Position numbers and translations under genes: made by a program. DNA of 30,936 nt from a virus (taxonomy: Duplodnaviria; Heunggongvirae; Uroviricota; Caudoviricetes), in IMG/VR virus record IMGVR_UViG_2671180778_000015. One strand, given 5' to 3'. The notes below the pieces were generated by a model. That model did not search any database, was not told the DNA's origin, and worked only from the letters and a program-made list of their open reading frames with translations. The first letter of the stretch is position 1. Every line of letters begins with the position of its first letter. Shown here piece after piece: positions 1,958 to 27,704 of this stretch.

Positions 1958-4405
1958 TTAACCGTCATGCATCATGCTGGCACGGGCGCGCGCACGTTTA
2001 TCCCGCTCGTATTTTTCGAGCGCATCCTGTAACTGGCGGTCAAGCTGTGTCCCCGGCGCAGTACCACCCGTCAGGCTGATGTGATATTCGTTTTTACTCT
2101 GGTCTACATAAGAGCGGCCAGCCGGTGCCGTGACCGGCTGATAAGCCTGATACCCCGTATAAGAGCTGGTCGCCGGAATATAACCACCGGTGCCATACGT
2201 GGCGGCATGAGTTCTGGCGGCAGTCTGGTCAAGTGTGTCTGACTCTTTGTTGATGACCCCGAGCTTTTCCAGTACCCAGTCAATGCCGCTGCGCAGTTTG
2301 TTGAACGCATTAAGCGGCAGCATCAGCGCGTCAGCCAGTGCCTGCCCGAACATGACGCCCGTGTCACGGCAACGGTTCAGGGTGTCCTGGGTGGCTTTGA
2401 CCGGGGCAATCAGGTTTTTAAACCACTGCCACGCGGCCTGTAACTTTTCACCTAGCCAGTCAAACACCGGCTTAAGTGGCGTGAACAGTTCCCCCACCGG
2501 CGCAAATGCCGCTTTCAGCCCTTCCACCACACCGCCAAAGAATGCGCTGACAGGCTCCCAGTATTTACGGATAAGCAACGCCCCGGCGACAATTGCAGCC
2601 ACCACGGCCACAACCGGCCAGCTAATCGCCCCGATGGCCGTCATAACGGCACTGCCAACCGTCGTGAAGATTGCCCCCATTGCGCCTGCTGCCGCGATAA
2701 TGGCATTGATGCCGGTGATAACCGGCCAGGCTACAAGACCAATGGCACCGATGATGCCAATAAGCGCCAGCGCGCCACCGACAATGAGGCCGATGGTTGA
2801 CGCCAGTGATTTGTTTTTCTGGATCCAGCCGTCGAGTTTTAACACATACTTTGTGGCCGTCTGTGTGAGCTTACGCAGTGCGCCTTCCTGCTGGTCAAAC
2901 AGGTCAGTCCCCACCGCCTCATAAGCGGACTGAAACTCCTTAAAGTCACCGCCGAGGTTATCCTGCATGATTTTAACCAGCTCTTCCGTTTTACCGTCCG
3001 AGGCTTTCAGCGTGGCGGTCAGCGTATCCAGTTTTCCGCTTGCTGCCGCTGCCAGTAAAACGTTCGCTGATTTCAGGGCTTCCTCACCAAAAATGGTTTT
3101 AAGGTATTCCCCCTTCTGAGACGTTCCCAGCTTGTGTTTATCAAAGCTGGCCTGAATCTCTTTCAGAATGGTGAACAACGGGCGCATATTTCCCTTTTTG
3201 TCCGAGGTTTTAACGCCAAGCTCTTTGAGTGCATCCCATGCTTTCCCTGTCGGAGCCTGTAATCGGGTGACAACGGCACTGCTACCCGTACCCGCCATTG
3301 ACCCCCTGATGTTATTGTCATGCAGCACACCTGTCATGGCTGCTGCCTGCTCAAGACTTACACCTGCCGTCTTCGCAACCGGGCCGAGATAAGTCAGTGC
3401 ATCACTGAGTCCCTGAAAATCAGCCGCCGACTTATTCATCGTTGCCGACAACACGTCGCCCACATGACTGACATCATCATTTGACAGTTGAAAGGATGCC
3501 TTAGTCCCCAGCAACAGTTGCGCGTTTTCTTCCATCGACCGCTGATTCGCCAGTGCCATATTCAGCGTGACCGGCGTTGCCGCCTGAATAGCCGCAGCAT
3601 CTCCACCGGCTTTCGCAATGATAATCTGTGCACCGGCCGCATCATCCGCCGAGGCGGCGGTATTGTCGCCGAGCTGGCGCGCCTGTTTGCGTAGTGCGGT
3701 CATTTCGGCGGAGTCTTTTGCCACTCCGAGCACGGCCTGCAATTCTGAGTTTTTCTGCGCAAACTCATAACCGGGCATCAGCAACTTAACTCCGGCCATC
3801 GTTCCCGCCGCCGCAATTCCCACACCGGCAGCGCCCACTGAGGCCATATTTCCGGCCAGTTCCTTTCCGGCCTGATAACGCTGTTTGACTGCGTTAAGTT
3901 TTGCCTGTTGCGCACTGACACGCGCCAGCGCGTCACGCTGCCGGTTAAGCTGGGCGGTGGTTTCACTGATACGGTTTTTCAGTCCCTGCTCATCATGTGC
4001 AAGATTGCGGGTATTAATTCCCACAACGGCCAGTTCCTGCTGCTGGCGTTTAACGGAATCCGTCAGGCGGTTATATTTCGCCTGTAAGTCCTCCGCCGCA
4101 CGCTTCGCGGATTCCAGCACTTTCGCCTGAGCACGTGTCGGACGTTCGGTGTTTTTAAACTGTGTGGCAAGGGCTTCGGCCTCCTGCCGAGCCTTTTCAA
4201 GTGCATGACCAGTCACGGCGAGTTGTGCACTGGTCTTGCGAAATCCCTCAATACGGGATGCCTGACCGTTCAGCTCGCGCAGTGATTTTTGTGTTTCCCG
4301 GATATCCCCCGACAGCGATTTGCTCGCTGTGCGGATGGATTTAAACGGGCGGGATGCCTGGTCAACAGCCCTGAGCAATACCTGTAATTTTACATTGTTA
4401 CTCAT
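1958..4405 (-). CDS. T: tail tape measure protein T, 815 aa
   Basis: 815 aa as P2 gpT; long coiled-coil-like Ala/Gln/Leu-rich N-terminal half and Gly/Ala-rich hydrophobic stretch typical of tape measure proteins; ATG at 4403-4405 overlaps the end of the E' frame (ATGAGTAA). Confidence 0.9.
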   Translation of the reverse strand: MSNNVKLQVLLRAVDQASRPFKSIRTASKSLSGDIRETQKSLRELNGQASRIEGFRKTSAQLAVTGHALEKARQEAEALATQFKNTERPTRAQAKVLESAKRAAEDLQAKYNRLTDSVKRQQQELAVVGINTRNLAHDEQGLKNRISETTAQLNRQRDALARVSAQQAKLNAVKQRYQAGKELAGNMASVGAAGVGIAAAGTMAGVKLLMPGYEFAQKNSELQAVLGVAKDSAEMTALRKQARQLGDNTAASADDAAGAQIIIAKAGGDAAAIQAATPVTLNMALANQRSMEENAQLLLGTKASFQLSNDDVSHVGDVLSATMNKSAADFQGLSDALTYLGPVAKTAGVSLEQAAAMTGVLHDNNIRGSMAGTGSSAVVTRLQAPTGKAWDALKELGVKTSDKKGNMRPLFTILKEIQASFDKHKLGTSQKGEYLKTIFGEEALKSANVLLAAAASGKLDTLTATLKASDGKTEELVKIMQDNLGGDFKEFQSAYEAVGTDLFDQQEGALRKLTQTATKYVLKLDGWIQKNKSLASTIGLIVGGALALIGIIGAIGLVAWPVITGINAIIAAAGAMGAIFTTVGSAVMTAIGAISWPVVAVVAAIVAGALLIRKYWEPVSAFFGGVVEGLKAAFAPVGELFTPLKPVFDWLGEKLQAAWQWFKNLIAPVKATQDTLNRCRDTGVMFGQALADALMLPLNAFNKLRSGIDWVLEKLGVINKESDTLDQTAARTHAATYGTGGYIPATSSYTGYQAYQPVTAPAGRSYVDQSKNEYHISLTGGTAPGTQLDRQLQDALEKYERDKRARARASMMHDG

Positions 4406-19647: not shown

Positions 19648-21420
19648 ATGACCATCACCACAGACACCACTCTTTTACACGACCCGCGTCGTCAGGCGGC
19701 GCTGCTGTACTGGCAGGGGTTTTCCGTGCCGCAGATTGCCGCCATGTTGCAGATGAAACGCCCGACGGTGCAGAGCTGGAAACAGCGCGACGGCTGGGAC
19801 AGCGTTGCCCCCATCAGCCGTGTCGAAATGAGTCTGGAAGCGCGGCTGACCCAGCTCATCATCAAACCGCAGAAAACCGGCGGTGACTTCAAGGAAATTG
19901 ACCTGCTGGGACGCCAGATTGAACGACTGGCACGGGTAAACCGTTACAGTCAGACCGGCAACGAGGCAGACCTTAATCCGAACGTTGCTAACCGCAACAA
20001 AGGCGGGCGGCGCAAACCGAAAAAGAATTTTTTCAGTGACGAGGCCATCGAAAAGCTGGAGCAGATTTTCTTTGAGCAGTCTTTCGAATATCAGTTGCAC
20101 TGGTATCGCGCCGGGCTTGAGCACCGCATCCGCGATATCCTGAAATCCCGCCAGATTGGCGCGACGTTTTATTTTTCCCGCGAGGCGCTGCTGCGCGCCC
20201 TGAAAACAGGTCATAACCAGATTTTTCTGTCGGCCAGTAAAACGCAGGCGTATGTGTTCCGCGAATACATCATCGCCTTTGCCCGTCTGGTTGACGTTGA
20301 CCTGACCGGTGACCCGATTGTCCTGGGCAATAACGGCGCAAAACTGATTTTTCTCGGCACCAACTCCAACACCGCGCAGAGCCATAACGGCGACCTGTAC
20401 GTCGACGAGATTTTCTGGATTCCGAATTTTCAGGTGCTGCGTAAGGTGGCATCAGGTATGGCCTCACAGAGTCACCTGCGATCGACCTATTTCTCCACCC
20501 CGTCCACGCTGGCGCACGACGCCTACCCGTTCTGGTCGGGTGAACTGTTCAACCGGGGACGCGCCAGCGCCGCCGAACGCGTGGAAATCGACGTCAGTCA
20601 TAACGCCCTTGCCGGTGGGCTTCTCTGTGCGGACGGCCAGTGGCGGCAGATTGTCACCATTGAGGACGCCCTGAAAGGCGGCTGCACGCTGTTCGACATT
20701 GAGCAGCTCAAACGCGAAAACAGCGCCGACGATTTTAAAAACCTGTTCATGTGTGAATTTGTTGACGACAAGGCGTCGGTGTTCCCGTTCGAGGAGCTGC
20801 AACGCTGTATGGTCGACACGCTGGAAGAATGGGAAGACTATGCGCCGTTTGCCGCAAATCCGTTCGGCTCCCGCCCGGTATGGATTGGTTACGACCCGTC
20901 ACACCGTGGCGACAGCGCCGGATGCGTGGTGCTGGCACCGCCGGTGGTGGCCGGTGGCAAATTCAGGATCCTTGAGCGTCACCAGTGGAAAGGCATGGAC
21001 TTTGCCACCCAGGCAGAATCCATCCGCAAACTCACCGAAAAATACAACGTCGAATACATCGGGATTGATGCCACCGGCCTCGGTGTCGGTGTGTTCCAGC
21101 TCGTGCGCTCGTTCTATCCCGCCGCTCGCGATATCCGCTACACGCCGGAAATGAAAACCGCAATGGTGCTCAAGGCAAAAGACGTTATCCGCCGTGGCTG
21201 TCTGGAATATGACGTCAGCGCCACCGACATCACCAGCTCGTTTATGGCTATCCGCAAGACCATGACCAGCAGCGGACGCAGCGCCACCTATGAGGCCAGC
21301 CGCAACGAGGAAGCCAGCCACGCCGACCTCGCCTGGGCGACCATGCACGCCCTGTTAAATGAGCCACTCACCGCCGGTATCAGCACTCCGCTGACATCCA
21401 CCATTCTGGAGTTTTACTGA
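19648..21420 (+). CDS. P: terminase large (ATPase) subunit P, 590 aa
   Basis: Trimmed to the MTITTDTTLLHDPRRQAALLYWQGF start (ATG 19648-19650, GGCGAGG upstream) gives 590 aa as P2 gpP; stop overlaps the Q start (ACTGATG). Confidence 0.9.
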   Translation: MTITTDTTLLHDPRRQAALLYWQGFSVPQIAAMLQMKRPTVQSWKQRDGWDSVAPISRVEMSLEARLTQLIIKPQKTGGDFKEIDLLGRQIERLARVNRYSQTGNEADLNPNVANRNKGGRRKPKKNFFSDEAIEKLEQIFFEQSFEYQLHWYRAGLEHRIRDILKSRQIGATFYFSREALLRALKTGHNQIFLSASKTQAYVFREYIIAFARLVDVDLTGDPIVLGNNGAKLIFLGTNSNTAQSHNGDLYVDEIFWIPNFQVLRKVASGMASQSHLRSTYFSTPSTLAHDAYPFWSGELFNRGRASAAERVEIDVSHNALAGGLLCADGQWRQIVTIEDALKGGCTLFDIEQLKRENSADDFKNLFMCEFVDDKASVFPFEELQRCMVDTLEEWEDYAPFAANPFGSRPVWIGYDPSHRGDSAGCVVLAPPVVAGGKFRILERHQWKGMDFATQAESIRKLTEKYNVEYIGIDATGLGVGVFQLVRSFYPAARDIRYTPEMKTAMVLKAKDVIRRGCLEYDVSATDITSSFMAIRKTMTSSGRSATYEASRNEEASHADLAWATMHALLNEPLTAGISTPLTSTILEFY

Positions 21421-22454
21421 TGAGCAAGAAAAAAGGGAAAACACCGCGACCAGCGGCAAAAACAATGACCGCCAGCGCCCCGAAAATGGAGGCATTCACC
21501 TTTGGTGAGCCGGTGCCGGTACTCGATCGCCGTGACATTCTGGATTACGTCGAGTGCATCAGTAACGGCAGATGGTATGAGCCACCGGTCAGCTTTACCG
21601 GTCTGGCAAAAAGCCTGCGTGCTGCCGTGCATCACAGCTCCCCGATTTACGTCAAACGTAATATTCTGGCCTCGACATTTATCCCGCATCCGTGGCTTTC
21701 CCAGCAGGATTTCAGCCGCTTTGTGCTGGATTTTCTGGTGTTCGGTAATGCGTTTCTGGAAAAGCGTTACAGCACCACCGGTAAGGTCATCAGACTGGAA
21801 ACCTCACCGGCAAAATATACCCGCCGTGGTGTGGAAGAAGATATTTACTGGTGGGTGCCGTCCTTCAACGAGCCAACACCTTTCACGCCCGGCTCCGTGT
21901 TTCACCTGCTGGAGCCGGATATCAATCAGGAGCTGTACGGCCTGCCGGAATATCTCAGCGCCCTTAACTCTGCCTGGCTGAATGAATCAGCCACGCTGTT
22001 CCGCCGCAAGTATTACGAAAACGGCGCACATGCCGGATACATCATGTACGTCACCGATGCCGTGCAGGATCGCAACGATATCGAAATGCTCCGCGAAAAC
22101 ATGGTGAAGTCGAAAGGCCGCAACAACTTTAAAAACCTGTTTCTCTATGCCCCACAGGGGAAAGCCGACGGCATTAAAATTATCCCGCTCAGTGAAGTGG
22201 CAACGAAGGACGATTTTTTTAATATCAAAAAAGCCAGCGCCGCTGACCTGCTGGACGCGCACCGCATCCCCTTTCAGTTGATGGGCGGCAAGCCGGAGAA
22301 CGTCGGGTCGCTGGGCGATATTGAGAAAGTGGCAAAGGTCTTTGTCCGCAATGAGCTTATCCCGCTACAGGACAGGATCCGCGAGATAAACGGCTGGCTC
22401 GGCCAGGAAGTCATCCGCTTTAAAAACTACTCACTGGACACTGACAACGGCTGA
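21420..22454 (+). CDS. Q: portal (capsid vertex) protein Q, 344 aa
   Basis: 344 aa as P2 gpQ; follows P; ends near cos as in P2. Confidence 0.9.
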   Translation: MSKKKGKTPRPAAKTMTASAPKMEAFTFGEPVPVLDRRDILDYVECISNGRWYEPPVSFTGLAKSLRAAVHHSSPIYVKRNILASTFIPHPWLSQQDFSRFVLDFLVFGNAFLEKRYSTTGKVIRLETSPAKYTRRGVEEDIYWWVPSFNEPTPFTPGSVFHLLEPDINQELYGLPEYLSALNSAWLNESATLFRRKYYENGAHAGYIMYVTDAVQDRNDIEMLRENMVKSKGRNNFKNLFLYAPQGKADGIKIIPLSEVATKDDFFNIKKASAADLLDAHRIPFQLMGGKPENVGSLGDIEKVAKVFVRNELIPLQDRIREINGWLGQEVIRFKNYSLDTDNG

Positions 22455-22850: not shown

Positions 22851-23474
22851 TTATTTGGATAACTTACCCTTAATATAATCAACAATTCCCATAATCAGTT
22901 CACTTAGAGGGGTTGCCAACTCAATACTCTCATTTGCTCTTTGCCCTGGTTGGTTTTTATCGGTCGGATGATGAAACGCAGACTTAATGAGTGTAAGGAT
23001 TAAGGTCAAGCCAACACCAAGGATAAATGCAACTATAGCAATCAATGAACTGGCAGAAAGCCAGTCCGTAGATAAGTTACCCATAGCCTTATCATTTTTG
23101 TCGAGATGGACACTTTTTGTGGCTACTGGTTTTACAGACTCTGATTTCGACTCAGAGCATTCCCCCTTTAATTCGCAAACATCTTTTTGAGTCTGAGTCT
23201 GAGTCAAAGCTGAAACGATATTACTTTTAGCCTGAAGTAATCCATTACCAACTTTAAGAGCAAAGCACAAACCAACTACTAAAAACAAAATTGCAATAAG
23301 CAAAGCTATGCTCGACACAATCAAACGCATCCATCTCCGCTCGATAGCATCATGCACATCTCTACGTAACAAAATATCGGGATCACTATCCCCACGAGGA
23401 GTTGACGTAGGTGGTAAATTAGAAGGTTGAGGTGACTGAGCCGGAGATTGCCCAGAAAGATCTATTTCTGCCAT
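22851..23474 (-). CDS. cargo protein: 2-TM membrane protein with Pro/Ser-rich N-terminus, 207 aa, function unknown
   Basis: ATG at 23472-23474; two hydrophobic helices (about residues 50-75 and 138-160) separated by a polar Cys/Lys/Ser-rich loop; AT-rich codon usage unlike the phage backbone; co-directional with and 67 bp downstream of the ImmA-like gene; followed by a terminator. Confidence 0.6.
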   Translation of the reverse strand: MAEIDLSGQSPAQSPQPSNLPPTSTPRGDSDPDILLRRDVHDAIERRWMRLIVSSIALLIAILFLVVGLCFALKVGNGLLQAKSNIVSALTQTQTQKDVCELKGECSESKSESVKPVATKSVHLDKNDKAMGNLSTDWLSASSLIAIVAFILGVGLTLILTLIKSAFHHPTDKNQPGQRANESIELATPLSELIMGIVDYIKGKLSK

Positions 23475-23541
23475 AAAAAATCACCATTATCTTAATAGAT
23501 AATGGTGATTCTAAACTGGTTTGGGAAAAGTTAAAGGGCTA

Positions 23542-24027
23542 TTAGTAAGCCATACCCAGCCCTTTTAGTCGCCAGTGCATCGCTGCTTCCGATACATTAA
23601 ATATGTTGGCTAAACGTAAAGTACTATCAATTCCTTCACGAGATACCAACTGACGGATGGCATCTTCAGGCATCAATAGTTCTGCGGCAAACTGGTTAGC
23701 TTCGATTTCACGGTAATCACGAATACCTGTTGAATAGTTGCCCACACTATCGCGATGAAACTCACCATCCTTCGTATGCCCCAAAACGTGATGAGCTAAC
23801 TCATGCGCTACTGTAAAGCGTTGACGGTTATAGTGCTCGGTTGAATCGAAATAAATCCTAGGCACGCCATTTTTAATTACTGCCAGACCACTTAACCCAT
23901 CGTTGTTAAACGCCGACTCCGTGAGTGCCTCCACTCTTGCTCCCCATGCTGCGGCGAGTTTAAACGGATCGACAGGTAGTCGGCGATCCCAGTAGCGACT
24001 AAGCAGATTTTTAGCTGCAATACTCAT
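23542..24027 (-). CDS. cargo protein: ImmA/IrrE-family (COG2856/DUF955-type) zinc metallopeptidase, 161 aa
   Basis: HEXXH motif in FTVAHELAHHVLGH followed by EIEANQFAAELLMPEDAI, the pattern I associate with ImmA/IrrE peptidases; strong RBS (GGAGGCACC ATG); AT-rich locus between cos and gene A. Confidence 0.7.
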   Translation of the reverse strand: MSIAAKNLLSRYWDRRLPVDPFKLAAAWGARVEALTESAFNNDGLSGLAVIKNGVPRIYFDSTEHYNRQRFTVAHELAHHVLGHTKDGEFHRDSVGNYSTGIRDYREIEANQFAAELLMPEDAIRQLVSREGIDSTLRLANIFNVSEAAMHWRLKGLGMAY

Positions 24028-24062
24028 GGTGCCTCCTACATTTGAAGTTAAAGGGATACAGC

Positions 24063-24089
24063 CTTATCACAGTTGTTATTTTTCGTCAA
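24063..24089 (-). promoter_or_regulatory. candidate sigma70-type promoter for the ImmA-like/membrane protein operon
   Basis: Minus strand reads TTGACG, then a 17-nt spacer, then TAAGGC about 45 nt upstream of the ImmA-like ATG. The -35 is good, the -10 is weak. Purely sequence-based. Confidence 0.3.
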
Positions 24090-24746
24090 GACTGTTTTTA
24101 CGCCTTTACTATAACACTAATCCACGTTTTCCCATAACATTTTTGACATCACCTATGCATTCATTTCTGCACACAGCACTATATCTTTGATGATAACAAC
24201 CGATGAATACTTGTGATCAGCTTATGTTTTGTAAAAATCTTATAAATCAAAATATTGAGATCAAAAAAATCACTAACGCCTCGCGTAGCGAGTGGTTAAA
24301 CCTTGGTGATACTTAAAGCAAATTTCAGCACCACCATCGCTCCATAACTACCATAACAATATGATTTTAATATGATTGATGACGTTATTTTTAAGTGCCT
24401 ATTCAGTTAGGCTACATCGTATTGTGTATTTTTCAATCACTGACAAATTTAAAAAATTTAGACTGCTTTCAAGGCCTTATCATCCGTAGCCTCTGTTTTT
24501 TACTTTGAGCTATATCAAAAAAAGCTCAAACATCCTTGATGCAAAACCAGTATTACACAACATAAAATGCAGCCAGAAACAACGACATACTATATGTTGT
24601 GTTGTTCAGGCTCTCTGTTCGGTGATGTGCCAGATCACTTTGCGTTTAAACAGAGCATTATTTCAGGGCAAGACTTCGCTCAATAGTCACTCCGCCTTAG
24701 AAGCGCATATACCGGCGGAAGTTGCCCTCTGCTTACAGGAGGCAAT

Positions 24747-24860
24747 ATGAAGAAGTGCTACTACTGCATTCTCGTTCTGGCTCTCTTTGGCTATCCAAAC
24801 GGTAGTCCGAGTGGTTTGTCAGTAAACGTCAGTAATATCCATGTAAGTATTTTTCTTTAG
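24747..24860 (+). CDS. small hydrophobic peptide ORF, 37 aa (MKKCYYCILVLALFGYPNGSPSGLSVNVSNIHVSIFL)
   Basis: Not in the supplied ORF track (below size cutoff); hand-translated. AGGAGG 5 nt upstream of the ATG; TAG stop 12 nt before a strong hairpin terminator; hydrophobic N-terminal half. Could be a small toxin or leader peptide; no recognised family. Confidence 0.4.
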   Translation: MKKCYYCILVLALFGYPNGSPSGLSVNVSNIHVSIFL

Positions 24861-24872
24861 TATGCTTCAAAC

Positions 24873-24902
24873 AAAAAAACCACCTGCCAGGGTGGTTTTT
24901 TT
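24873..24902 (+). terminator. rho-independent (bidirectional) terminator
   Basis: AAAAAAA CCACC tgccag GGTGG TTTTTTT: GC stem extended by an A-run/T-run pair; follows the 37-aa ORF and precedes the 3' end of gene A on the opposite strand. Confidence 0.75.
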
Positions 24903-25162
24903 GCGCCCGTCATCAACCCGATGAAAGACTAGCAAGACTTCGCTCGAGACGAATTATGCTTCGACAGAAGGTCACTCGCAATGATTTTATTAGCCGAAAT
25001 AGATGCTCTTTTATGACTCGCATCAAATAGCTGCCTTCAATTACATGCTAGCGATTCCATACAATTTAGCCTTTTAATTCAGCATGCTATTGACCTTCCT
25101 CTGCCTTAGAGTCGCTCCACATAAACCATTCAAAGGCATATCAAATCACGTTGTGTTTTTAC

Positions 25163-27439
25163 TCAAATGGATAACAAAAATCCCGGCCACTCATCAGCGA
25201 CCGGATACGTGAATTTTTTCCCGTCATAATTTACGGTCGCGCCACGCGCCAGCGCCTCAAGCTCCCATCGCTGCGGCCTGATACCGTTCTGAGCAAGGTC
25301 AACGCGGATACGGGTAATTTGCATTCTTTCCGACCGGGTCAGTCTGGCCGATGGTGCAATTTCATGTGGTTTTAACGGGCTTCCGTTTCTTTGCTGACGG
25401 TTTGGCGTTCGCAGGTCGTGTTTTAATGCGCCCCTGAGCGCCCTCACGACCTCCGGTTCATTCCATTCAATAACACCGTCATCAACCAGATTAAGCACTG
25501 CTGCGGCGTGCTCAGAAGGTGTGGGAGCCGGTAACGAAGTATCACCACCGGTGACCTTTCCACAGTTATTGACAGGACTCCGAGGCGCGGCGATGCCGCT
25601 TTTTAAAGTCAAAGGCTCAACGACCGGCACTTTCGGCACAATGCGCCAGTCCGTGGTTCTGGTGATATGAATATGACGCGCGCCGAGATGCGGCGCGTAA
25701 ATGCCGACCACTCTCTCGACTTCTTCCTCGTACTCGTTAACGTCATCCGACGGGCTACGGGCGACTCTGACAGTCTGACAATCGCGCGGAACATTTGCCC
25801 CACCCTGCGCGCTGATATACAACGCAAAATCACCACTGTCTGCGGCGGCGCGTGCAGCCTCGACGCGCTCGTCAAACTCATCAGCAATGCTGACGCCGCG
25901 AGGCAATTTGCGTAGTTCACGGTAAGCCCCCATTGTCGGCAGGCCAACCGTTTTAAATTGCGGGATGCGCCACGTTGACGCCCATGCGGTAACAGCCGCC
26001 GCTGTGTCTTTCAGCGGCCTGCCGGTATCGTTATCGAGCTGACCATCCAGCGCATAGCCGTCGATGTTTTTTGAGATGTATTTCGCGATATATCCCGCAG
26101 CACCGCCCCGGTTAAGGTGTTTTGCCTGAAAACGGTTTCGCGCGGCTCCTCTTTCGTCGCCATCCTCTTTGAGCGCATAGCGACGCATGATTTCGATAAT
26201 CTGGTTACGCTGGCGTGGATTACAAAAAAGCATCATATGCCAGTGCGGCGTTCCGTCGTGGTGTGGCTCAACAACACGCAAACCATAAGCCTGTAAATCA
26301 TTATCCTTGAATGCCGTGCGCATCAGGCTCCAGATACGGCAGAGATAACGCTGCGCATCTTTTGGATTAAATGCCTCATCGTTCCAGCCGTGATTAAGCT
26401 GGACGGTTTTACTTTCACCTTTTCCGACCTGACGTGTCGGGTGATATTTTGACGGCGTGGTCAGCGTGATAAACATCCCTACATCACCCTCTGCAGCGGC
26501 GTAACGCTCAATACCGGCGATGGTGTTCATCAGCTCCATCCGGCGAATTTCAGGATTAGAAATACTGCCCATAACCTTACTGATAAGGTCGATGCGTTCG
26601 CCGGTTTCCCTGTTTTCAAGGTCACACGATTTAAGAAATTCCAGATTTGCCTGGCGGCGCGCACGCACATCACGAATGGCATGTTTACTGGCATAAGGAG
26701 AACGGTCTTTATTCACCTCCCCGACAGCAATCAGTAACGCCTCATGCCAGCGCATACGCTGGCCTTTAAGCTGATGAGTCCACCACTCATCGTTAAACAG
26801 ACGGGCAATGGCAGAATATGCCTGCCTCGTGGTCATCTGTCCTTTACGGTATTTTTTCCAGTAGAGAGGGGAAATATTGAAAGCACGTGCAGCGCCAGCA
26901 ACATGACCATACAGGTGAGCCTGCGCCTCATCCGTAAACAGCGATTCTTTTTCGCCATGCGCATCCACCCAGGCATCGCAGAGTTCCTCATACATCATGA
27001 AAAGCTGCGATGAGATACGGGCGGCAAACTTTTTCAGCTCCTTGTCATTCATTCCAGGCAGGCGCGCATAGTGGTCACGCTCTGCCAGAAACAGCAACGA
27101 CGCGTCGGTGTTCATTTCATGGCGCTGATTCACACGCTCAATACGCGGCCATAAACGACGCTGAAAAGTGGATGTGAGGAAATAAAACCCGTGTACCGGA
27201 CTTTTATTGCGCCGGATGTAGTCATAGCGTGAAGTAAACAGCGAGCGCAAAAAGTAAGGCAGGCGGTTAATCGTGGATAAAACACCTTGCACCTGACGCA
27301 TCTCGTCACGTGTAAGGGGTCTTTCGCGCCCGACGGCCTCGCGTGGCGCGTTCCATGCATAAGCACCGGTAAACGCCTTACCGGTGCCTGCAGCAAATGC
27401 TGAAGGAGGGACAAAACGCCCGGAGGCTTTAACGGCCAT
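25163..27439 (-). CDS. A: replication initiation protein A (rolling-circle endonuclease), about 758 aa
   Basis: Long ORF in the position of P2 gene A with sequence I recognise as gpA (MAVKASGRFVPPSAFAAGTGK..., HxH-type rolling-circle motif region GTPHWHMMLF). The ORF-track start at 27481 is a TTG; the first ATG (27437-27439) gives the P2-like N-terminus, so I use it. The C-terminus differs from P2. Confidence 0.85.
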   Translation of the reverse strand: MAVKASGRFVPPSAFAAGTGKAFTGAYAWNAPREAVGRERPLTRDEMRQVQGVLSTINRLPYFLRSLFTSRYDYIRRNKSPVHGFYFLTSTFQRRLWPRIERVNQRHEMNTDASLLFLAERDHYARLPGMNDKELKKFAARISSQLFMMYEELCDAWVDAHGEKESLFTDEAQAHLYGHVAGAARAFNISPLYWKKYRKGQMTTRQAYSAIARLFNDEWWTHQLKGQRMRWHEALLIAVGEVNKDRSPYASKHAIRDVRARRQANLEFLKSCDLENRETGERIDLISKVMGSISNPEIRRMELMNTIAGIERYAAAEGDVGMFITLTTPSKYHPTRQVGKGESKTVQLNHGWNDEAFNPKDAQRYLCRIWSLMRTAFKDNDLQAYGLRVVEPHHDGTPHWHMMLFCNPRQRNQIIEIMRRYALKEDGDERGAARNRFQAKHLNRGGAAGYIAKYISKNIDGYALDGQLDNDTGRPLKDTAAAVTAWASTWRIPQFKTVGLPTMGAYRELRKLPRGVSIADEFDERVEAARAAADSGDFALYISAQGGANVPRDCQTVRVARSPSDDVNEYEEEVERVVGIYAPHLGARHIHITRTTDWRIVPKVPVVEPLTLKSGIAAPRSPVNNCGKVTGGDTSLPAPTPSEHAAAVLNLVDDGVIEWNEPEVVRALRGALKHDLRTPNRQQRNGSPLKPHEIAPSARLTRSERMQITRIRVDLAQNGIRPQRWELEALARGATVNYDGKKFTYPVADEWPGFLLSI

Positions 27440-27704
27440 ATGAGCCAAAAGCCTCTGAACAACGCCTGCTGAGTTGCTCAACCTGCGCGTTTAAATCAGC
27501 AAAAGACTTTGCGCTTCCGGTCAGAATATCGTGATGCATCAGGCCGGAAACGAGCTGGCTTAATTTCGGATAATAACCAACCACCGCAAGCCATTCCTGA
27601 CCGGCGTTTTTACCGCTTTCCGCTCTCTTTTTCTCGTGGAGAATAAACTGAAAGCTGTCACTGGTAACGACATAACGTTCGCCAATTTCAATACGAATAC
27701 TCAT
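27429..27704 (-). CDS. early-operon small protein (P2 orf83-like), 91 aa
   Basis: Position immediately upstream of A in the B-A operon; size and order match the small ORFs between B and A in P2. Confidence 0.6.
   Translation of the reverse strand: MSIRIEIGERYVVTSDSFQFILHEKKRAESGKNAGQEWLAVVGYYPKLSQLVSGLMHHDILTGSAKSFADLNAQVEQLSRRCSEAFGSYGR

Follow-up and report, generated by a model that had tools for sequence, protein, structure and literature searches.

A probable type I toxin-antitoxin-like cassette bordering gene A of P2-like prophages and carried by enterobacterial plasmids

Background

What, if anything, is encoded in the 1.1-kb stretch without long open reading frames (ORFs) that separates the cargo genes from the replication gene A in a P2-like prophage? 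The DNA analyzed here, virus record IMGVR_UViG_2671180778_000015 (Caudoviricetes; 30,936 nt, referred to as the window), is a P2-like (Peduovirus) prophage; the region in question is 99.8% identical to the GenBank entries OU784750.1 and NC_070905.1, both named Peduovirus P2, and 99.9% identical to the chromosome of an E. coli O121 strain. Within the stretch (positions 24028–25162), a short ORF on the plus strand (24747–24860) is preceded by a Shine-Dalgarno (SD) motif and followed by a hairpin. An original prediction, made from the letters of the window, had taken this ORF for a deliberately expressed orphan of the cargo locus, coding for a small membrane toxin of a type I toxin-antitoxin pair or for a regulatory leader peptide. 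The comparative analysis described below leads us to conclude with high confidence that the locus is a small-protein cassette controlled by a small RNA (sRNA). Probably, it is a compact and autonomous type I toxin-antitoxin-like cassette (24497–24995) in which the ORF is the toxin-like gene. That the product acts as a toxin, and by which exact mechanism, is proposed with moderate confidence by analogy to known systems.

Coding constraint on the 37-codon ORF

The ORF extends from an ATG to a TAG codon and specifies a peptide of 37 amino acids, MKKCYYCILVLALFGYPNGSPSGLSVNVSNIHVSIFL. As read from the sequence, an AGGAGG motif (24737–24742) precedes the ATG by 4 nt (CAAT); the predicted near-consensus SD thus stands, while its spacing of 5 nt has to be corrected. 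Size alone does not lend significance to such an ORF, given that 45 ORFs of at least 20 amino acids overlap positions 23500–26500. It is judged to be more than a chance frame because of comparative evidence, namely its being intact everywhere and its substitutions being of the coding type. The ORF is intact in all 28 distinct variants of the surrounding block that were first collected, and likewise in divergent lineages from Kluyvera, Citrobacter, metagenomes, and plasmids of Klebsiella and Enterobacter. All homologues found comprise 37–38 codons with an ATG start and an SD motif, down to an amino acid identity of about 57%. Between lineages, the proportion of synonymous differences (pS) ranges from 0.5 to 0.97 and that of non-synonymous differences (pN) from 0.14 to 0.29, with ratios of non-synonymous to synonymous rates (dN/dS) of 0.07–0.38; among the 37 codons, the first, second and third positions are variable in 20, 14 and 34 cases, respectively. 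Amino acid replacements are conservative across lineages, eleven residues (M1, C7, I8, L11, L13, G15, Y16, P17, S22, S25, S29) are invariant, and no other ORF or frame is conserved throughout the cassette in all lineages. These patterns indicate that the ORF is under purifying selection and is a real, conserved gene. Conservation in related prophages, proposed as a check of the original prediction, was borne out, since the ORF is intact in every homologue found. Its description as an orphan has to be abandoned, as 150 E. coli genomes, 420 plasmids, and 31 IMG/VR contigs contain relatives.

Longer versions of the protein in databases (calls of 88 and 46 amino acids) were considered as possible N-terminal extensions, and rejected as gene-caller artefacts: they need either loss of the TAG at 24684–24686 or use of a non-conserved ATG. 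The occurrence of non-triplet insertions and deletions in the leader between lineages also counts against in-frame extensions. This TAG is all that separates the peptide gene from an in-frame upstream ORF (24567–24686). In an E. coli W-type lineage the TAG is changed to AAG, so that an 88-amino-acid fusion (database variants P0075 and P0079) is called on hundreds of contigs. Another database variant of 68 amino acids (P0074) is a rare mutant that has lost the normal stop codon.

A shared terminator and a putative convergent small RNA

The perfect hairpin terminator that had been noticed behind the stop codon was confirmed. Starting 11 nt past the TAG, two arms of 13 nt each (24872–24884 and 24891–24903), which are 100% complementary, enclose a loop of 6 nt; the hairpin is preceded by A7 and followed by T7 (A7-CCACC-TGCCAG-GGTGG-T7, 24871–24904). 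Because it is flanked by both A7 and T7, this intrinsic terminator should be bidirectional and would be common to the mRNA of the peptide gene and an RNA transcribed from the opposite strand. It escaped a consensus terminator scan only because its T tail is taken up by the A/T-extended stem. It is the most conserved part of the cassette, with 34 of 38 columns invariant in nine lineages, though the synonymous sites of the ORF are near saturation. The rare changes that do occur are G·U-compatible on the minus strand only. The terminator is also a region of 3'-3' complementarity between the mRNA and the sRNA. Its conservation suggests that it does more than terminate transcription, for instance by mediating a loop-loop contact of the two RNAs as in par.

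A putative promoter of an antitoxin sRNA was found on the minus strand by consensus scan, with a –10 hexamer CATAAT (24958–24953), a 17-nt spacer, and a –35 hexamer TTGCGA (24981–24976); a conserved A/T-rich stretch upstream of the –35 hexamer (24982–24995) forms the right edge of the cassette. In the nine lineages, 6 of 6 positions of the –10 and 5 of 6 of the –35 hexamer are invariant, as compared with 2 of 17 in the spacer and 8 of 14 in the upstream stretch, and the promoter is kept on plasmids. The start of the sRNA, placed by means of this promoter-like motif, would lie at about 24945/24944, resulting in a transcript of approximately 80 nt (24945 to about 24866, minus strand) which consists of a 5'-terminal seed, a hairpin (termed hairpin 2), and the terminator with its U tail. 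The scan did not detect any antisense promoter on the minus strand across 24747–24860, where the original prediction would have placed it; the partner RNA is instead predicted to be convergent, to originate downstream of the ORF, and to pair in trans.

The predicted sRNA folds with a minimum free energy of –31.9 kcal/mol (z = –3.97). In hairpin 2 (24929–24921 with 24913–24905, minus strand) only 1 of 24 columns is invariant, yet the structure is kept, with five pairs changed on both sides. Overall, 96.6% of the alignment cells of the sRNA structure are paired, and the conservation measures were matched by only 0–4 of 500 shuffles. Fourteen G·U pairs of hairpin 2 on the minus strand would be C·A mismatches on the plus strand, where 2 G·U pairs and 20 mismatches are found, and the minus strand folds better than the plus strand in all nine lineages; therefore, the structure appears to be selected on the minus strand.

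Complementarity between the putative small RNA and the mRNA leader

The 5' end of the predicted sRNA, with the seed GAGCGAAGUCUUGC, corresponds to one copy of an exact 14-nt direct repeat, GCAAGACTTCGCTC, which is located at 24668–24681 (copy 1) and 24932–24945 (copy 2). The repeat occurs just twice in the 31-kb window, even with two mismatches allowed, and is the only noteworthy exact repeat of the region. Opposite transcription of the two copies renders the RNAs complementary at the repeat. The putative target site of the sRNA in the 5' untranslated region (UTR) of the mRNA (24667–24683, plus strand) contains the core of copy 1 and is located 64 nt upstream of the AUG. Between 14 and 18 contiguous pairs are kept in ten out of ten lineages (one row of the repeat table, L043, was a self-match of a truncated contig), and the site always lies 62–65 nt upstream of the AUG. 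In each of nine lineages, no other site forms a better duplex, and the paired fraction falls from 95% to 29–40% in slid controls. The repeat copies differ at four core positions in one lineage or another, in all cases in the G·U-compatible direction, and one lineage (L052) shows one true double change in the duplex, with an A-U pair versus G-C in the others.

Putative promoter and predicted leader structure of the peptide mRNA

For the peptide mRNA, a putative sigma-70 promoter consists of the hexamers TGCAAA (24540–24545) and TAAAAT (24563–24568). The hexamers (TGCAAA, and TAAAAT or TAGAAT) are conserved in all lineages, with a fixed spacing of 17 nt and variable spacer sequence; as placed from this promoter-like motif, transcription would start at about 24575/24576. 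Upstream of the –35 hexamer, a conserved block (TTTTTACyTTG...ATCAAwAAA...AACATC, 24497–24535, plus strand) marks the left edge of the cassette. It is kept in all divergent lineages including the plasmid copies, while the sequence further to the left is unrelated; it might be an UP element or be bound by a protein. An imperfect hairpin within it, TTTGAGC...GCTCAAA, is confined to the window lineage.

The resulting 5'UTR of approximately 172 nt (24575–24746) has an RNAalifold consensus structure of five helices with a total of 27 pairs. Helix 1 (24613–24619 with 24649–24655) encloses helix 2 (24621–24626 with 24634–24639); helix 3 (24672–24675 with 24685–24688) is followed by helix 4 (24691–24696 with 24714–24719), which bears the invariant loop GAAGCGCA (24700–24711). 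In helix 5, the anti-SD sequence CCCT (24725–24728) is paired with the SD motif, with 100% pairing across lineages; in an N15-like telomere-phage lineage (L037), the SD motif is GGTGG and the anti-SD is CCGCC. In total, 97.9% of the alignment cells of the leader are paired and seven pairs show compensatory changes, a result that was reached by none of 500 shuffles, as compared with 38–50% in slid controls. The predicted probability of being unpaired is 0.25–0.31 for the SD in eight of the nine lineages, versus approximately 0.41 for the average nucleotide, while the sRNA site, at about 0.45–0.56, is more accessible than average.

Apart from the sRNA site, the leader contains two invariant single-stranded elements, UGCGU (24641–24645) in the internal loop between helices 1 and 2, and the loop of helix 4. 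A loop-loop pseudoknot of UGCGU with GCGCA (24703–24707), which would bracket the sRNA site, is possible; neither side varies. This candidate pseudoknot is reminiscent of the standby pseudoknots of tisB and timP. With purifying selection on the ORF, a structured leader that occludes the SD, and a predicted partner sRNA with a conserved promoter, the idea of a deliberately expressed peptide unit resembling a type I toxin gene is well supported.

Distribution and mobility of the cassette

The cassette measures about 500 bp (24497–24995); homology of the distant lineages stops just outside both promoters, BLAST homology with three of them (L037, L040, and L042) starting at about 24470–24497. In E. 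coli, a block corresponding to 24428–25162 adjoins gene A in 150 of 5,426 complete genomes. With a similar gene A being present in 1,712 E. coli genomes, this amounts to about 9% of the prophages of this kind. The gene content on the left side of the block varies, from an ImmA-like or AAA ATPase pair to a lone unknown gene, and some prophages have no annotated gene between the portal gene and gene A. The assignment of the ORF to a variable cargo locus therefore did not hold: it lies in a block which is conserved, separates the cargo from gene A, and is also found in prophages without cargo.

Distant copies, with peptide identities of 56–68%, were retrieved by pattern scans of IMG/VR, GTDB genomes and metagenomes and by a plasmid search. 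They comprise L037, L040 from Kluyvera georgiana, L042 from Citrobacter freundii, L048, L052, and L061–L063, the latter from Klebsiella and Enterobacter plasmids. Two pattern matches on genome contigs (L039 and L041) turned out to be chance matches and were dropped. In L037 (IMG/VR UViG_3300011594_000020; about positions 2061–2491 of the oriented locus), the cassette is inserted between a protelomerase gene (telN; TelK domains) and a gene coding for a 1,329-amino-acid Toprim replicase (repA), an architecture which is that of an N15-like linear plasmid-prophage (telomere phage). The Kluyvera copy is located beside genes of Zot and secretin proteins in an inovirus-like region. In L048 and L063, the cassette adjoins toxin-antitoxin genes of the RES-domain/helix-turn-helix (RES/Xre) type, and in L052, L061 and L062 it is found next to insertion sequence (IS) elements. 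PLSDB contains 420 plasmids with the cassette, 392 of them from Klebsiella and 349 conjugative; 388 of the 420 cover at least 80% of the query, with an identity of about 73%. Movement among unrelated mobile elements, and enrichment on large plasmids of low copy number, make this compact two-gene unit look like an addiction module.

L061 is plasmid pGN-2 (IncFIB/IncHI1B) of a K. pneumoniae isolate from a liver abscess. On pGN-2, the cassette is located a few kb from a cluster of ThiF, MPN, nucleotidyltransferase and 3'-5' exonuclease genes, which looks like a cyclic-oligonucleotide-based antiphage signaling system (CBASS) or a ubiquitin-like system.

Properties of the peptide and database searches

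The peptide starts with an n-region (MKK), followed by a hydrophobic h-region of about 12 residues (residues 4–15), the invariant G15-Y16-P17, a polar S-x-S segment, and an uncharged C-terminal stretch with alternating hydrophobic residues (L/W-S-V-N-V-S-N-I-H-V-S-I-F-L). Judged from this organization, the N-terminus, with its hydrophobic segment of about 12 residues followed by G-Y-P, bears more resemblance to a Sec-type signal or anchor, such as that of TimP, than to the transmembrane helix of Hok or TisB. The hydrophobic N-terminal half that had been compared with small membrane toxins is real, but appears to be signal-like. The conserved C7 was considered as the lipidation site of a lipoprotein; this was discarded, given that a signal of 6 residues is impossible and no lipobox is present.

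A speculative and rather doubtful extension of these observations is that the toxin is exported by Sec rather than being pore-forming. In this scenario, the invariant S-x-S at residues 20–22 would be a signal peptidase site, and the released 15-residue amphipathic β-strand peptide (G-L/W-S-V-N-V-S-N-I-H-V-S-I-F-L) would act in the periplasm or at the outer membrane, e.g., as a mimic of the β-signal which jams the β-barrel assembly machinery (BAM) or triggers envelope stress. In P2-like prophages, it might serve as an abortive-infection trigger at an anti-phage hotspot, set free when an invading phage halts host transcription and the sRNA decays.

Five divergent cassette peptides had no match in Pfam and NCBIfam at E ≤ 10 and no family match in PHROGs and PADLOC (a single PHROGs match had E = 0.35). 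The scans of these four collections agree with the earlier statement that the peptide does not match Hok, Ldr, Ibs, TisB or ShoB, and the same holds for DinQ and ZorO. At the RNA level, neither the gathering threshold nor E ≤ 10 yielded any match to Sok, Sib, IstR, OhsC, RdlD or RF00126 in Rfam; only sub-threshold, terminator-driven matches (RNAI, Phe_leader, P9) were returned. An exhaustive phmmer search of 1.84 billion representative proteins recovered four clusters only, all unnamed and none of them TimP. Where the protein is called, its database name is “hypothetical protein”, as for ECW_m2278 of E. coli W. The exact peptide of the window has no called gene on record, RefSeq has no feature beneath the E. 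coli matches, and the Klebsiella variants are missing from a collection of 15 billion proteins. Full-text literature searches for the peptide, seed and terminator sequences, and a keyword search for a type I system in P2-like phages, found nothing.

Relation to known type I systems and proposed mechanism

Two general features of type I systems can be recognized in the cassette. One is a hydrophobic small protein (37 amino acids, with hydrophobic residues 4–15) whose translation would be restrained by a structured 5'UTR, about 172 nt long, in which the SD is partly sequestered; the other, as deduced from the sequence, is an antitoxin RNA from the same locus which is complementary to the toxin mRNA. 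The tisB/istR-1, zorO/orzO, shoB/ohsC and dinQ/agrB loci are type I systems of E. coli with trans-encoded adjacent antitoxins, and in tisB/istR-1 and zorO/orzO the sRNA competes with the ribosome standby site. With these four systems, the cassette shares a long structured 5'UTR with an occluded SD, and pairing of the antitoxin with a short site (about 18–20 nt) far upstream of, rather than at, the ribosome binding site, features that are described in part in PMC13000454. However, their sRNAs are divergent or tandem, whereas that of the cassette is convergent and shares a terminator with the mRNA, and their toxins are single transmembrane helices without a signal-like organization and without sequence similarity to the cassette peptide.

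The layout of the cassette is that of par(pAD1) (Fst/RNA II) of Enterococcus faecalis, which has convergent promoters, a bidirectional terminator, direct repeats, and an intramolecular helix sequestering the SD (PMC7472228). Convergent promoters, a shared bidirectional terminator and oppositely crossed direct repeats are all found in the cassette, as is the sequestered SD. Differences concern the number of repeat pairs (one, versus DRa and DRb in par), the position of the target (62–65 nt upstream of the AUG, versus the translation initiation region), and the length of the sRNA (about 80 nt with an extra hairpin, versus about 40 nt). Unlike Fst, the cassette peptide contains neither a PXXXG motif nor a charged C-terminal tail, and it has no match in the Fst/Ldr family. 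Moreover, par-like loci have been described from low-G+C Gram-positive bacteria, whereas the hosts of the cassette are Enterobacteriaceae.

Peptide and targeting are more reminiscent of TimP/TimR (ryfA/STnc2070) of Salmonella and E. coli. TimP is a 38-amino-acid toxin with a Sec signal sequence, and the 5' end of the sRNA pairs with 18 nt of the 5'UTR (PMC7667032). Both systems have peptides of 37–41 amino acids with an N-terminal signal-like hydrophobic segment, an sRNA whose 5' end pairs with 14–18 nt of the 5'UTR at a conserved distance to the ORF, and a conserved leader structure that controls access to the SD (PMC7667032; PMC13000454). Positions 6–11 read aromatic-C-I-(V/L)-(L/V)-(I/L) in TimP as well as in the cassette peptide. 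Homology to TimP, considered on account of this motif, was rejected: five cassette peptides fail NF040796 at E ≤ 10, while E. coli TimP scores 86.8 bits, and hhalign of the TimP and cassette peptide alignments gave a probability of 0.7% and an E value of 0.078 over 10 columns only. The two systems also differ in arrangement and setting. In the K-12 locus, timR is divergent and located upstream of timP, whereas the sRNA gene of the cassette is convergent, downstream, and shares the terminator; moreover, timPR belongs to the chromosomal core, while the cassette resides on mobile elements. Most likely, the cassette represents an undescribed type I family which combines a par(pAD1)-like layout with TimP/TimR- or TisB/IstR-like targeting, an unusual mix of known design elements.

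A possible course of events can be outlined from these parallels. The weak but conserved plus-strand promoter (TGCAAA-17-TAAAAT) would give rise to an mRNA of about 330 nt, whose 172-nt leader partly buries the AGGAGG motif, and the opposite promoter (TTGCGA-17-CATAAT) to an sRNA of about 80 nt that stops at the common bidirectional terminator. In vivo, the 5' end of the sRNA would pair with the accessible leader site 62–65 nt upstream of the AUG. By analogy, pairing might block a ribosome standby or loading site and/or create a substrate of RNase III, with the SD held in a helix. When the element is lost or transcription stops, the sRNA would decay faster than the structured mRNA, and the peptide would be made. 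Via its signal-like N-terminus, the peptide would enter the Sec pathway to be inserted in, or exported across, the inner membrane, and in excess it may damage the envelope. The role of such a system would be stabilization of the carrier element by post-segregational killing, or possibly defence by abortive infection. In P2-like phages, early transcription that continues beyond gene A would also yield RNAs with the sRNA sequence in their 3' end.

Alternative explanations

Several observations weigh against the interpretation as a type I toxin-antitoxin cassette. The peptide has no detectable homology to known toxins, its toxicity being proposed by analogy alone, and at about 12 residues its hydrophobic stretch falls short of the length of a classical pore-forming transmembrane helix. 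Its closest analogue, TimP, does not inhibit growth when present at native levels (PMC7667032). On the RNA side, both transcription start sites were placed from promoter-like motifs; the –35 hexamer of the mRNA promoter is weak (3 of 6 positions), which is why the consensus scan called no promoter on the plus strand. Sequestration of the SD is just moderate in thermodynamic terms, with probabilities of being unpaired of 0.25–0.48. The core of the intermolecular duplex being nearly invariant, its covariation does not attain significance (258 of 500 shuffles equal the score). The evidence for pairing therefore consists in the conserved complementarity and in the direction of the changes. Finally, conservation of the repeat copies could reflect a function at the DNA level.

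The likeliest alternative is a small membrane or periplasmic protein which is controlled by the sRNA but is not a toxin. Such a protein might serve in superinfection exclusion or lysogenic conversion, or modulate an envelope protein of the host, with its dose being tuned by the sRNA. An N-terminus resembling a signal sequence rather than a pore-forming helix, and the location of the cassette at a P2 hotspot which houses anti-phage cargo, would suit such a protein; many small membrane proteins act as regulators, and TimP, being non-toxic at native levels, may itself have a non-toxic function (PMC7667032). However, the cassette moves by itself among phages and plasmids that are unrelated, and it is often found on large conjugative plasmids, which is more in keeping with an addiction module than with a phage-specific exclusion factor. 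Repression in several layers, by a buried SD, a weak promoter and a dedicated antisense RNA, is typical of genes that have to be kept off. We consider a non-toxic function possible, though unlikely.

The existence of the sRNA itself might be questioned, if the minus-strand hairpin were the terminator of the neighbouring gene A operon and the repeats were sites of a DNA-binding protein. The terminator is indeed located 260 nt downstream of gene A on the gene A strand, and the near-invariance of the repeat cores, together with the non-significant duplex covariation, would be compatible with protein binding. However, the promoter hexamers, the hairpin and the terminator are kept where gene A, or any convergent gene, is missing; hairpin 2 covaries in a minus-strand-specific manner; conserved –35 and –10 hexamers around a free 17-nt spacer are the signature of a promoter; and each core difference between the repeat copies is G·U-compatible. 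A cassette lacking the sRNA thus appears improbable.

Even less credible is the assumption that the ORF remains untranslated and that the plus-strand transcript is a structured non-coding RNA whose frame persists by chance or owing to RNA constraints. Non-coding parts on either side are conserved as much as the ORF or more, and the exact peptide of the window lacks a record as a called gene, but the bias in variable codon positions (20/14/34), dN/dS values well below 1 at near-saturated synonymous sites, the conservation of length, start codon and SD in every lineage, the conservative replacements, and the absence of any other conserved frame are those of a translated gene. The regulatory leader peptide of the original prediction, which would attenuate transcription of a downstream gene, can be dismissed: a short ORF directly followed by a terminator hairpin and weak sub-threshold Rfam matches to Phe_leader recall attenuation, but those matches score 23–26 bits against a threshold of 55 bits and owe their scores to the terminator, a run of regulatory codons is missing, the plus strand is empty downstream, where the next gene (gene A, Phage_GPA) is convergent, and the cassette keeps its form in unrelated host elements with a different downstream context in each.

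Genomic neighbourhood in P2-like prophages

Gene A, coding for the replication endonuclease (25163–27481, minus strand; Pfam Phage_GPA, E = 4e-123), flanks the cassette on the right, and the portal gene Q (21420–22454, plus strand) lies further to the left. The two cargo genes between gene Q and the cassette are both on the minus strand. One (23542–24027) codes for a 161-amino-acid M78/ImmA-IrrE peptidase which is CapP-like, CapP being its best PADLOC match (E = 3e-28); the product of the other (22851–23474), a 207-amino-acid protein, has no match in Pfam and PADLOC. Neither a CapH-like partner nor a CBASS-type effector was seen beside the CapP-like cargo (22851–24027). The CapP-like peptidase and the 207-amino-acid protein may be an uncharacterized defence or regulatory pair.

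A second terminator-like hairpin with a T run (TCCGGTCGCTGATGAGTGGCCGGG ATTTTTGTTA; 25172–25205, minus strand) was observed within the last approximately 15 codons of gene A, ending ahead of the gene A stop codon (25163–25165). If it is functional, transcripts of the early operon would end before the stop codon of gene A and upstream of the sRNA promoter.

In dozens of complete E. coli assemblies, the record begins exactly at a P2-like gene A, annotated as “replication endonuclease”; apparently, assembly-rotation software mistook the prophage replication gene for the chromosomal start. In these assemblies, the cassette therefore always occupies record positions 2278–3410 (many matches spanning 2278–3381, minus strand). 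In one such record, a coding sequence that spans the origin is annotated as a DUF5405 protein.

Conclusions

If confirmed, the cassette would represent a new type I toxin-antitoxin family that has been missed entirely by current annotation and has no model in Pfam, NCBIfam or Rfam. The par(pAD1) layout, so far Gram-positive, would then exist in Enterobacteriaceae as well, combined with targeting of a site far upstream in the leader, and the peptide would provide a second, independent example of the TimP-like class of toxins with a signal-sequence-type N-terminus. Since the cassette borders the hotspot of anti-phage cargo in P2-like prophages, a role in defence or in maintenance of the hotspot is directly testable. 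As an addiction module on large conjugative plasmids of Klebsiella, including those of the IncFIB/IncHI1B type, it would be relevant to how virulence and resistance plasmids persist.

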